Assembly: GCA_964518475.1 (NCBI GenBank)
Contig: CAZFGR010000018.1
Location: 1 to 30,753 of the forward strand
DNA length: 30,753 nucleotides
Origin: an uncultured Nitrososphaerota archaeon
GTDB lineage: Archaea > Asgardarchaeota > Njordarchaeia > Njordarchaeales > Njordarchaeaceae
Direction: 5' to 3'
Made by a program: the position numbers and the translations under genes
Shown: piece after piece, positions 5,656 to 30,753 of the stretch
Position numbering within the stretch: the first letter of the stretch is position 1
Layout of the letters: each line of letters starts with the position of its first letter
Notes under the pieces: model-generated
What the model saw: the letters and a program-made list of their open reading frames with translations, nothing else
Database searches by the model: none
Told to the model about the DNA's origin: nothing

Positions 5656-7761
5656 GTGATGGTAACGCCTGAGTTAATAACTTTTTCTCCCCAACCTTTG
5701 GTGTACGAATTAAATAGCAAATATCTACAATATTCTTCAATCATGGTGTCTACTGTGTCACGCAATAATTGCAAAGCAAGGTTTAATCCGAGGGAACATA
5801 TTCAACGGATCATTAGGTTTCTCATATCAAGGAACAGAGAGGTTATCGAGGAACAATTAAGCTACCTAGGTACCTATGATCCAGCGGTTTGGGAATCGAT
5901 AACAAGAGGTTTCCAGAAGGTAATAAACTTCTCAAGGCTTGCATCTCAAATCTTAGAAGATGAAACTGTGATTGACTGGGCACAGGAAACGTTATTAAGG
6001 ATCTTCAGGAGCTTGTCATCGATTGTTAGAAAAGCACAGAATCCGGTGCATGAAATAAGGGGTCTTGCAAAACTAGCAAGAGGGGCTATTCTTATAATTC
6101 CCCAAGAAACTATCCTGTTATTGTCAGAGGCTGTTAAGAAGCTGGAAAGCATTGAGGATTTAGAAGAACGGGTTAGAAGCGCTAGCTACTTGTTGTTTGA
6201 GATAGGATACATGTTAAAGAAGCGTGGATCCGTATTTTCTCCCGAAAAAATACCGCATACCTATATTTCCCAGTTAGAAAAAATTGCAAAAGAGATTGCT
6301 GAAAAAGCCTTAAACTGGGTCTCATATATCTCTTCCCCAACAGTACGAGCGAGAACATTAGCCTTTTTGTCTGAAGGTATGAGAAATTTGAACATTGTCA
6401 TACAACAGGGAGAATATGGGGTTAAATGGCTTGATACCAATGAAGCCGAAGCTATGGCTTCTCTTGCCCTGAAAGAAGCAGAGAATGTGGATGAAGAATA
6501 TGAAAAAGCTATGATAAAGGTCTATGTTGGCTATCTCTTTGCTTCTCTTTCCTACGACCTCGCGAGTAGAGGAGAGGAACTGTTTAACGATGCCTTAAAG
6601 ATAGCCCTAGAACTGATCAGAAAAGATCCTAGAAAAGCAGGAAGAATAATTGGAGAGATAGGGTACTGTAAGGCATTTCTTGGCGATGATGATACCGCAG
6701 AAACGCTGTTTGAAGAAGGGGTAGCGACATCTCTTAAATGTCCAGATTGGGAAGGAATACTAACTGCTCTTAATATTGCTGAGTCAGCAGCAAGGGCTAG
6801 GATGTATAGAGTGGCTGCGGAATTGCTTGAAGATCACATATTACAGCTAATAGACAATCTTAAAGATAGAATAGAAGCGGCGGCATTAAAAGGGGTGGCT
6901 GCAGATATTATTGCATGGATAGATTCTAATTGGGCTGCAAGGCTAGCACAAAATGGAGCAGAGGAGTTATGGACTTTTCATCCATTAAGTATCAGCAAGG
7001 GAGAACACCTATATTTAATAGGCTTAGCTTCTGCTAAATCAGCTTTTGCAGAACCAGACGCTAGCTGGCGTTATCTGGATTTTCTCCTTACACTTTTAAG
7101 AGAGGATGTTTGGTTAGATAGAGAATTCGTGGAGAGTATTTCTCCCTTTTGGCTAGGTAAGGCATATTCCGCCCTAGTACCGATTCCTAGACTACTAAGA
7201 GTGTTTAAGAAAGCATTATTAGAGACCTTAAGTAGCATGGAAAACTCCTATGGTGAGGAAGTATTAGCAAAGATATTGATTGAGGTAGCTCGTGGTATAG
7301 GAAGATCTGATACAAAATTTGCAAAAGAGTTGCTGGATAGAGGAATAATGTTGTCTCTTGATAAGCCCTCGGAGCCAACTCTTCTTGGTAAAGCTTTGAG
7401 AGTAGCTGAAGAAATTGATTCGCCACTAACTGAAGTACTGCTTAATGAAATTCAGAGAAGAGCGGAAATGAGGGAATTTCCATCGGATGTGATAGACTAT
7501 TTAACCAAAGCTATAGAATCGGCAAGAACATCGAAGGGAGCTACAAAACTAGCTCAAGCTTCAGTAGACATAATATATGAAGTCAATCCACAGAAAATTT
7601 CTCCAGAGAAATTGAAACGTTTTCTTAGAGTCTTAAAACTCATTGATCCAAGCTGGGCCTCTGAAGTAGCTCTCATGATAGAAGAAGAAAGAAATACTTC
7701 TCTAAGCAGATCGGAAAATCAGACGACCGTTAAGAAGGGGGTAAAGGAGAAGAAAGCATGA
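5656..7761 (+). CDS. Large alpha-helical repeat (TPR/solenoid-like) hypothetical protein
   Basis: 701-aa open frame rich in A/L/E/I with recurring helical patterns (e.g. AVKKLESIEDLEERVRSA, ALKEAENVDEEYEKAMI); the true start may be the ATG at 5743. Confidence 0.65.
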   Translation: MMVTPELITFSPQPLVYELNSKYLQYSSIMVSTVSRNNCKARFNPREHIQRIIRFLISRNREVIEEQLSYLGTYDPAVWESITRGFQKVINFSRLASQILEDETVIDWAQETLLRIFRSLSSIVRKAQNPVHEIRGLAKLARGAILIIPQETILLLSEAVKKLESIEDLEERVRSASYLLFEIGYMLKKRGSVFSPEKIPHTYISQLEKIAKEIAEKALNWVSYISSPTVRARTLAFLSEGMRNLNIVIQQGEYGVKWLDTNEAEAMASLALKEAENVDEEYEKAMIKVYVGYLFASLSYDLASRGEELFNDALKIALELIRKDPRKAGRIIGEIGYCKAFLGDDDTAETLFEEGVATSLKCPDWEGILTALNIAESAARARMYRVAAELLEDHILQLIDNLKDRIEAAALKGVAADIIAWIDSNWAARLAQNGAEELWTFHPLSISKGEHLYLIGLASAKSAFAEPDASWRYLDFLLTLLREDVWLDREFVESISPFWLGKAYSALVPIPRLLRVFKKALLETLSSMENSYGEEVLAKILIEVARGIGRSDTKFAKELLDRGIMLSLDKPSEPTLLGKALRVAEEIDSPLTEVLLNEIQRRAEMREFPSDVIDYLTKAIESARTSKGATKLAQASVDIIYEVNPQKISPEKLKRFLRVLKLIDPSWASEVALMIEEERNTSLSRSENQTTVKKGVKEKKA

Positions 7762-29107: not shown

Positions 29108-29902
29108 TTATGAGTCACTTTTCCGCGAAGAATTTCTCTGATAAATCTTTCTAATTATTAACGCCGCTAAATAGCCAGCTCCAAAACCATTGTCGATATT
29201 AACAACTGCGACACCAGGTACGCAGGAATTTAACGCTGATAACAACGCTGAAAGTCCACCAAAACTAGCTCCGTAACCCACACTAGTGGGAACAGCTATA
29301 ACTGGGGCATCTACTAACCCAGCCACAACCGAGAATAGAGCAGCATCCATACCTGCGCAAACAATTACTACATCACATTTTCTGATCTCTTCCAAGTGAT
29401 CAAATAATCTATGAACCCCAGCCACTCCTACATCATATACCCTAATAACATTTGCTCCAAAGAATTCAGCGGTAATAGCTGCTTCCTCAGCGACTCTAAT
29501 ATCGGCGGTGCCTCCTGTTACTACAGCTACGGAGCCCATCTTCTTAACTTCTCTTCCCTTTATAGTTATTACCCGAGCCTCCCGATAATATTTGACACCC
29601 TCTATATCTCTCAATGCATTATAGGTCTCCTCATTAGCCCTAGTTATCAAGATATTTCTCTCAAAATGGAGAAGCTCTAGCACTATCCTCCTAACTTGAT
29701 CAGGACTCTTTCCCTCCGCTAAGATGACCTCGGGTAATCCCTTCCTAAGGGATCTTCCAGTATCAATTTTTGCAAAAAACAGATCCCTGTAAAGCAATAG
29801 CTTTAACTCAGCAATAGCTTCATCAATACTAATCGCACCATCTTTAACCTTCTCCAAAATATCGCGTAGTTTCTCCATCTGATGAAACCCCAAAGAAACC
29901 AT
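29108..29902 (-). CDS. larB: Nickel pincer cofactor biosynthesis protein LarB
   Basis: RKGLPEVI..GK, GTAD..VAEEA, DVGVAGVHRL, AGMDAAL, PTSVGYG, LNSC, VVNIDNGFGA; likely start is the ATG of MEKLR. Confidence 0.95.
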   Translation of the reverse strand: MVSLGFHQMEKLRDILEKVKDGAISIDEAIAELKLLLYRDLFFAKIDTGRSLRKGLPEVILAEGKSPDQVRRIVLELLHFERNILITRANEETYNALRDIEGVKYYREARVITIKGREVKKMGSVAVVTGGTADIRVAEEAAITAEFFGANVIRVYDVGVAGVHRLFDHLEEIRKCDVVIVCAGMDAALFSVVAGLVDAPVIAVPTSVGYGASFGGLSALLSALNSCVPGVAVVNIDNGFGAGYLAALIIRKIYQRNSSRKSDS

Positions 29903-30039
29903 AGCATCTCTGGATAATTATAAATCGACGAAATCTCTACTAGAAGCCCTGTATTAAAACCTACTCTAAAATATTATAAAATTATTATAAAAAGAAACAG
30001 CAATGACCAAAAAAGAAAGGAGTATCGTTCTCGATTCTC

Positions 30040-30213
30040 ATGCGATATTAACTAGGGATATCTCTCCTAACGCATTATTGGGCTGTGGAGAGTGGTTATG
30101 GTGATCGTAGGGATCTTGATCATATTGAGGATGGTGGGCGGTTGGAGGGTGCTGATCCTAGCAAGGTGAGTGGTAAGGCTAAGAAGCGTGGCGCACCCCA
30201 GTTAATATCGTAT
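30040..30213. repeat. 18-bp imperfect inverted repeat pair enclosing the rtcB fragment
   Basis: ATGCGATATTAACTAGGG (30040-30057) and CCCCAGTTAATATCGTAT (30196-30213), 16/18 complementary. Confidence 0.85.
30076..30204 (+). pseudogene. rtcB: Isolated internal fragment of an rtcB coding sequence (43 codons)
   Basis: YWAVESGYGDRRDLDHIEDGGRLEGADPSKVSGKAKKRGAPQL matches the archaeal RtcB segment WAV..GYG...DL...E..G...GADP..VS..AK.RG..QL that precedes GSLGSGNH. Confidence 0.85.
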
Positions 30214-30258
30214 CCTATTCCTCCCGCGCTTCTTGTCAAAAATCACAAAATACCTAAA

Positions 30259-30362
30259 TGTTGCTTAACTAAGCAACAGTTTTAACCCCACAAAAATCAG
30301 GAGTTTTAAGGAATCATCAAACTCCCCCAATATAATGATAGATTCTTTTCTGTTGCTTAGTT
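30259..30362. repeat. Palindrome and 13-bp inverted repeat built from TGTTGCTTA
   Basis: TGTTGCTTA-AC-TAAGCAACA at 30259-30278; AACTAAGCAACAG (30267-30279) / CTGTTGCTTAGTT (30350-30362). Confidence 0.8.
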
Positions 30363-30407
30363 TTATATATCTATTCTGGTATATTCTACCTTCAGGAGTA
30401 GAATATA
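30361..30407 (+). promoter_or_regulatory. Putative rtcB TATA box with a downstream 10-bp inverted repeat (operator-like)
   Basis: TTTTATATA at 30361-30369; TATATTCTAC (30380-30389) N8 GTAGAATATA (30398-30407). Confidence 0.5.
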
Positions 30408-30440: not shown

Positions 30441-30753
30441 ATGGCTGGCACTCCGATTGATTTTACCCGAGATCAGCTCTATAGAGTACTCAAAAAAATT
30501 AGGACAAATGTCTATGAGATTCCAGAGACGTTCCGTAACTACATGCATGTCCCAGTAAGAATCTACATGACAGAGAAGTTACTGAAGGAAACAGAAGACG
30601 GAGCGATCCAGCAAGCAATGAACGTAGCCTCGTTACCAGGAATAGTTAAATGGTCAATAATGCTACCAGATGCACACTGGGGCTACGGATTTTGCATAGG
30701 AGGAGTCGCAGCCTTCGACATCGAAGAAGGAATCATAAGCCCAGGAGGAATAG
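30441..30753 (+). CDS. rtcB: RNA-splicing ligase RtcB, 5' part (runs off the window end)
   Basis: Manual translation MAGTPIDF...MHVPVRIY...[11 protein letters not shown]...[28 protein letters not shown]; GGTGA RBS upstream; absent from the ORF track because there is no stop in the window. Confidence 0.95.

Follow-up and report, generated by a model that had tools for sequence, protein, structure and literature searches.

T-even phages carry free-standing homing endonucleases, Seg and Mob, which spread by intronless homing with co-conversion of their flanks, and the HO enzyme of yeast is a free-standing LAGLIDADG enzyme derived from an intein. In the icd gene of E. coli, the elements e14 and phage 21 lie inside a protein gene for which they supply a replacement end. 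Templated insertions, on a smaller scale, occur at the junctions left by microhomology-mediated break repair or template switching (MMEJ and MMBIR). The tRNA-splicing ligase RtcB is among the listed hosts of inteins (PMC4760082). In the open-access literature we found RtcB inteins but no description of free-standing endonucleases for the RtcB sites.

Here we describe a patch of copied rtcB DNA that lies upstream of an intact rtcB gene in an archaeon, together with the corresponding loci of sister organisms, in which two free-standing LAGLIDADG genes (HEG1 and HEG2) stand near rtcB. The window, that is, the whole stretch of 30,753 nucleotides that was analysed, is contig C18 of metagenome bin G000 (121 contigs, 2.33 Mb, 91% complete, 5.8% contamination), and the labels C5, C39, C55 and C85 denote further contigs of the same bin. 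L034 is a 135.7-kb contig from another assembly that holds larB, the patch, a 490-aa rtcB and the genes downstream.

With the RtcB inteins that contain LAGLIDADG domains, these loci share the same two target positions in rtcB (GYGF/C and DIN/C, the slash marking the insertion point) and homologous endonucleases; unlike in those proteins, there is no intein here, the endonucleases of the sister loci have no Hint parts and are encoded on their own, upstream of the promoter, and the window itself retains only an endonuclease relic of about 110 nt. As with Seg, Mob and HO, an endonuclease gene adjoins its presumed target and flanking gene sequence travels along, but the archaeal cassettes seem to bring a promoter with them as well as a replacement 5' segment, with the displaced 5' fragment left upstream, and cleavage by them is putative. 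The likeness to e14 and phage 21 lies in partial duplicates of the target gene beside an element and in a target gene that stays intact. In contrast to those elements, the sister loci duplicate the 5' end and promoter of the gene and have a MerR-HTH serine recombinase and an extra inverted fragment, and in the window the element is missing. Finally, short direct and inverted copies of nearby DNA, microhomologies of a few bases, filler and mismatches near the junctions liken the patch to MMEJ and MMBIR products, although a segment of 125 nt is long for such insertions and the likeness to these pathways is here one of sequence.

The features between larB and the window end are listed below, where intein site a is F84/C85 (GYGF/C) and site b is N109/C110 (DIN/C), both in the numbering of the window's RtcB, and where seg1, seg2 and seg3 are the segments of the patch.

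29108..29902, minus strand: larB-like gene (AIR-carboxylase fold), an ORF; PF00731 is recorded for an identical product
29903..30039, no strand: spacer U, AT-rich, between larB and the patch
30040..30057, plus strand: seg1, which forms the left repeat arm and copies rtcB codons 106-111 (YDINCG) in direct orientation, degenerate, 15/18
30058..30078, no strand: filler of 21 nt without significant match to rtcB or the genome
30079..30203, plus strand: seg2, a direct copy of rtcB codons 166-207, 125/125 identical to C5:238-362
30196..30231, minus strand: seg3, copied in inverted orientation from rtcB codons about 100-110 (33/36) and including the right repeat arm
30232..30345, plus strand: HEG2-type relic, the last ~35 codons of a free-standing LAGLIDADG gene, with a secure core at 30286-30322 and outer limits (30232 and 30345) drawn from weaker similarity
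30256..30281, no strand: palindrome of 26 nt inserted in the HEG2 relic, an insertion relative to the sister locus L056
30349..30440, plus strand: conserved rtcB promoter and leader block, homologous to the sister loci
30362-30369, plus strand: TATA-like TTTATATA, assigned by sequence reading
30441..30753, plus strand: rtcB codons 1-104, with the ATG at 30441; the gene runs off the window and the rest is on C5 (C5:56-1212)
30692/30693: intein site a (F84/C85), inside the rtcB 5' part
from 30744: start of the in-gene site S, cut by the window end

The left neighbour, larB, is transcribed away from rtcB. The last 55 nt of the window (30699-30753) are the same as C5:1-55, and the joined contigs C18 and C5 encode a complete RtcB of 490 aa, residues 165-207 included; L034 is identical to this joined sequence at all 6902 compared positions and reads straight through the position of the contig break. 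The initial annotation had raised the possibility that rtcB is scrambled or split and needs reassembly, but because the gene is complete, contiguous in L034 and contains the displaced WAVE...GAPQL segment, this idea is refuted. Reading the gene past the window, as that annotation had proposed, also revealed that the in-gene segment is 100% identical to the patch copy over 125 nt. The contig break of the window's assembly falls between site a (+6 nt) and the recombinase crossover described below (-3 nt), in the 26-nt repeat, and its position in site S may hint at population variants.

The G/T-rich third codon positions noticed in the upstream fragment are confirmed and stem from its parent segment in rtcB. 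Within the gene, the third-position G+T share changes from 0.05-0.30 (codons 61-120) to 0.85-0.95 (codons 121-200), against a genome-wide ORF median of 0.50; the switch from A/C-rich to 85-95% G/T is sharp, at about codon 119, and both sides of it lie outside the 5-95% range of the genome. The sister organism's copy of rtcB has the same switch, and relatives show a similar but weaker trend. Pairwise identities of the 5' and 3' parts of rtcB revealed no clear discordance between the window organism and the sister organism, and on these comparisons the composition switch could not be tied to cassette transfer.

Most of what had been read from the patch itself was borne out. An RtcB segment does lie upstream of the gene (30076-30204 aligns with RtcB residues 165-207, 42/43 identical by tblastn); its homology stops 237 nt before 30441, in agreement with the distance of about 240 nt to the ATG given at first; and the end at PQL does fall inside the right arm of an 18-nt inverted repeat that brackets the fragment (30040-30057 and 30196-30213, 16/18 complementary, with 138 nt between the arms). 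The perfect 125-nt match cannot have arisen by chance. The inverted repeat exists because both arms copy the DNA encoding the RtcB active-site motif GYDIN/CG: the intein-homing site of rtcB is present here once in direct and once in inverted orientation. The left arm begins at G105/Y106, the boundary at which the sister locus has the serine-recombinase junctions J1 and J2, and for its exact core of 11 nt we estimate ~0.003 chance occurrences in this intergenic region. The core of seg3 (30199-30224) is a perfect 26/26 inverted copy of in-gene codons 102-110 (GGIGYDINC); seg3 ends at the N109/C110 intein insertion point (...AACTG, that is, N109 plus two bases of C110) and overlaps the end of seg2 by a 5-nt microhomology, CAGTT. 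The pieces of the patch all originate no more than about 300 nt from site b, occur in both orientations and are joined by microhomology and filler. The outer 7-nt pairing said to extend the repeat (30018-30024 with 30216-30222) is present, but it includes one G-T pair and is of the size expected by chance.

Local alignment of spacer U with rtcB on both strands gave scores no better than those of shuffles, and short-word BLAST of spacer U and the 21-nt filler against the genome and the sister loci gave chance-level matches only. One public assembly annotates as a gene an ORF of 66 codons with a GTG start (30085-30285). This ORF fuses the rtcB copy with the inverted site and the HEG2 relic, and most likely it is no gene.

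Contigs C39 and C55 carry further rtcB pieces, with 83-88% DNA identity to the rtcB of the window organism. C55 encodes HEG1 (C55:78-977, minus strand), a LAGLIDADG protein of 299 aa. A search of 5.8 billion proteins gave as its closest relatives the endonuclease domains of RtcB inteins (E down to 2e-48). The matched inteins sit at ...DIN/C...HN/CGVR, that is, between N109 and C110, and the intein-bearing RtcB proteins returned were those of Methanocaldococcus infernus, Methanococcus aeolicus, Korarchaeum and Bathyarchaeia among others. Protein P0007 has a second intein at GYGF/C, between F84 and C85, and of the P0007 inteins the best match to HEG1 is the DIN/C (site-b) intein (36%, E 4e-40). 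The GYDIN/CG DNA is the site at which the site-b RtcB intein homes; it is also predicted to be what HEG1 targets, and it adjoins the crossover site of the serine-recombinase element. HEG1 has other free-standing relatives (P0002-P0006), which were found in ORFan islands, not near rtcB.

In the sister locus L027, C55 continues into the intact rtcB of a sister organism from the same metagenome (83% identical), and a perfect 360-bp inverted repeat of codons 106-224 (L027:5099-5458 and 6974-7333) surrounds HEG1, the promoter and codons 1-105. The model that fits this repeat best is a serine-recombinase inversion, attP x attB in a duplicated 5' copy. C39 shares 55 nt with the sister rtcB up to codon 105-106 and then diverges; past this point come a serine recombinase of the MerR-HTH/resolvase type and element genes over about 16 kb, among them a tyrosine recombinase, a giant ORF with a lectin domain, a P-loop ATPase and a ribbon-helix-helix protein. 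The junctions J1 and J2, in C39 and C55, share a GG(T) core. C39 (1-11070) and C55 (1-6628) join end to end into a ~18-kb mobile element with the rtcB 5' region, and a search of viral contigs with the ATPase of the element returned no match. The two contigs differ from the window organism (83% DNA identity; coverage 36 vs 23 in another assembly) and are probably contamination of the bin from a different, related organism.

In L056 the same RtcB protein as in L027 is encoded, but here its gene follows another free-standing LAGLIDADG gene, HEG2 (L056:3494-4570, 358 aa), whose product is 56% identical over 346 residues (E 3e-132) to the endonuclease part of the GYGF/C (site-a) intein of P0007. 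Upstream of HEG2 lies A0 (L056:2599-2949), a displaced promoter with codons 1-84 that ends within 1 nt of F84/C85 and that shares with the current 5' part about 80% DNA but about 93% protein identity. A0 occurs in two lineages, being found also at L068:5005-5256, where it ends at F84, and the A0-HEG2 module is present in seven assemblies. Every context recovered has a HEG2-like gene (64-100% identity) at the 5' end of rtcB, among them that of G003, a genome of the same genus, whose rtcB is 100% identical to that of L066 in codons 1-109 and 99.8% identical in codons 121-490. Intact free-standing endonuclease genes are present in L027, L056, L066, L067 and L068; a search of genome contigs with HEG2 gave no match. 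Upstream of A0, L056 also has a CRISPR-like array whose period is about 72-75 nt, along with a PaREP1 gene (L056:14-1533).

L068 comes from a more distant organism and is a single scaffold, with a serine recombinase that is 72% identical. Its order is A0, HEG2, promoter with codons 1-106, serine recombinase, a 12.5-kb element, antisense codons 107-201 and a HEG1-like gene, and inverted rtcB fragments start at codon 106-107 in two lineages. The rtcB behind HEG2 in this scaffold reads GYGF-VVGG, not GYGF-CIGG, at site a (L068:7190-7215), a change that may represent escape of the target from the endonuclease. Judged from the loci recovered, the 5' end of rtcB is in these archaea a hot spot at which two endonuclease genes, derived from inteins but free of them, and an element with a recombinase are found, and the rtcB fragments of the sister loci break either at the intein sites or at the recombinase crossover. 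The breakpoints coincide with the intein insertion points F84/C85 and N109/C110, the putative cleavage sites.

Homology of the window to both sister loci begins exactly at 30349, the left edge of the promoter block. To the left of this edge, 30286-30322 aligns with the 3' end of HEG2 (L056:4505-4541) with a score of 47, compared to 16.7 +/- 2.3 for shuffles (0/2000 reached it), and a protein-level search for HEG remnants in the window found a 9-residue match only. Because the relic is homologous to HEG2 and its spacing to the promoter is collinear with L056, we infer that an ancestor of the window organism had HEG2 upstream of rtcB. Most of HEG2 is gone from the window, where a relic of ~35 codons is all that stands beside the target in place of an endonuclease gene, and the patch abuts the deletion point. 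Element genes like those of the att-duplicated elements in the sister loci are absent between larB and rtcB. The palindrome inserted in the relic (30256-30281) carries, in both orientations, a motif that also stands at the left edge of the promoter block, with a perfect inverted match of 13 nt to 30350-30362, and may be a further small templated insertion or else an operator. A match of ~36 nt to 30247-30282, with unrelated flanks, was seen in other contigs of sequencing runs X1 and X2.

The initial annotation had suggested comparing the locus in relatives. A search of the other 13 genomes of the order, several of them only 66-90% complete and 2 without an rtcB match, did not find the patch, and the 11 with rtcB matches show no extra pieces.

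We favour, with some confidence, the explanation that the patch is a non-coding scar of break repair and template switching, put together from three copied stretches of the cell's own intact rtcB when HEG2 was lost, and from its sequence it is probably functionless. A double-strand break at or near the GYDIN/CG site would have been followed by error-prone repair synthesis with template switches, in which one stretch would have been copied up to the broken end at N109/C110 and synthesis would then have restarted on the opposite strand at codon 207 via the 5-nt microhomology AACTG/CAGTT, and HEG2 would have been removed in the same event. The origin of the pieces, their two orientations, their joins by microhomology and filler and the stop of one of them exactly at N/C form the pattern expected of a break at the homing site with re-primed synthesis. 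Because the locus now has no endonuclease or recombinase gene, it is the coincidence of breakpoints that links the patch to such a break. The perfect identities over 125 nt and 26 nt could reflect gene conversion or selection instead of recency. The early suggestion of a cassette bounded by inverted repeats or a recombination scar therefore holds for the scar but not for the cassette, whose ends the arms are not.

The left boundary at G105/Y106 would fit a recombinase crossover at least as well as an endonuclease cut, and for this reason an eroded recombinase junction is the main rival. The patch would then be the relic of a serine-recombinase event, namely an attR-type junction with duplicated rtcB DNA that was later eroded by deletion and inversion, and the model element would have a recombinase with MerR-HTH and resolvase domains and a crossover at the GG in codon G105. 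The start of the left arm within 1-2 nt of J1 and J2 in C39 and C55 agrees with such a history, as do the same architecture in another organism on one scaffold, with an rtcB fragment from codon 106-107, and the outer fragment ends (codons 201 and 224), which are close to the patch end at codon 207. However, no element gene is present at the locus, the flank left of the arm is unlike either attP arm, the expected GG is missing, the fragment is direct here and inverted in both element-bearing loci, and rtcB pieces are missing around relatives of the recombinase elsewhere. Nor does such a history account for the end of the inverted copy at N/C, and we consider this origin unlikely.

Readings that give the patch a present role, or that deny its existence, fare worse against the same data. 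A functional RNA or small protein, whether a sense decoy, a 125-nt antisense to the rtcB mRNA or an RtcB-derived peptide, seems very improbable to us: perfect identity over 125 nt would suit antisense pairing with the mRNA and the 66-aa ORF was called by one gene caller, but the patch is flanked by two divergent promoters and precedes the rtcB TATA box, GTG is the only start of the ORF, whose tail is HEG2-relic sequence in shifted context, and the search of the other 13 genomes of the order yielded no further copy. The patch does not fold better than shuffles (z = -1.56), the covariance models of Rfam 15 gave 0 matches to it at E <= 1, and a tRNA search found none, so the regulatory or decoy RNA proposed earlier gains no support. 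The fragment was also supposed to loop out on a long stem, whereas the minimum-energy fold leaves the two 18-nt arms unpaired with each other; they could pair as a 14-bp helix with one A-C mismatch and 3 G-C pairs, without bulges, and the original observation that there is no canonical bulge-helix-bulge stands (two 3-nt bulges with a 4-bp helix do not occur at the boundaries). Also very improbable, in our view, is an active inversion switch in which flipping of the promoter and first 101 codons turns full-length RtcB off. The 26/26 inverted repeat (30199-30224 and in-gene codons 102-110) does flank the promoter, the window's assembly does break inside the in-gene repeat, and a sister locus does have its perfect 360-bp inverted repeat around HEG1, promoter and codons 1-105. 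Against a switch, no cognate recombinase is nearby (relatives in the bin occur only on C39, on C85 and at C5:82.5 kb, the last two being the nearest), the L034 assembly is continuous across the region, the OFF state would be costly for an archaeon with many spliced RNAs in which rtcB is probably essential, and no strand-changing joint was seen among contigs on the region, which were independent k=31 contigs from the run that best represents the locus and drop rare variants. Inverted joins at microhomologies are typical of amplification chimeras and the source is a metagenome bin with 5.8% contamination, yet a chimera of assembly or amplification is hardly credible given that the patch is identical in three assemblies and that junction-contig depths of 24-42 match the surroundings. 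One independent contig of 2721 nt spans 29400-30203 and with it the left junction (0 mismatches, depth 42), another of 187 nt spans 30174-30360 and with it the right one (0 mismatches, depth 24.5), and runs X2-X4 cover the patch in part; with the locus contiguous in L034, the early suspicion of an assembly artefact is dispelled as far as assemblies show.

Beyond the scar itself, the comparison of these loci suggests a broader reading, which we put forward tentatively and hold at somewhat below even chances, that the rtcB 5' end is subject to a homing cassette in this genus and its neighbours, with the patch as a stage of its decay. An endonuclease freed from its intein would travel with a promoter and a 5' gene segment that ends at the old intein site, so that an essential gene would be invaded without splicing and the displaced 5' fragment would be left behind. 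The serine-recombinase element would piggy-back on the site, and the perfect 26-bp inverted repeat may still permit occasional inversion of the rtcB promoter segment. We found no description of a homing cassette such as these sequences suggest.

For annotation, these results advise caution: the 66-codon ORF should not be counted as a gene, and C39 and C55 should be treated as belonging to the rtcB locus of another organism. The patch is most likely junk, and its value is that of a footprint of the loss phase in the life cycle of a homing endonuclease in an archaeon. It also led to the intact sister loci, in which two intein-type endonucleases stand outside inteins and beside the gene of an essential tRNA-splicing ligase. 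If the homing cassette is confirmed, the odd mosaic features of rtcB would also be accounted for, and a spare 5' gene end would be a third way, besides introns and inteins, for homing endonucleases to live in an essential gene.
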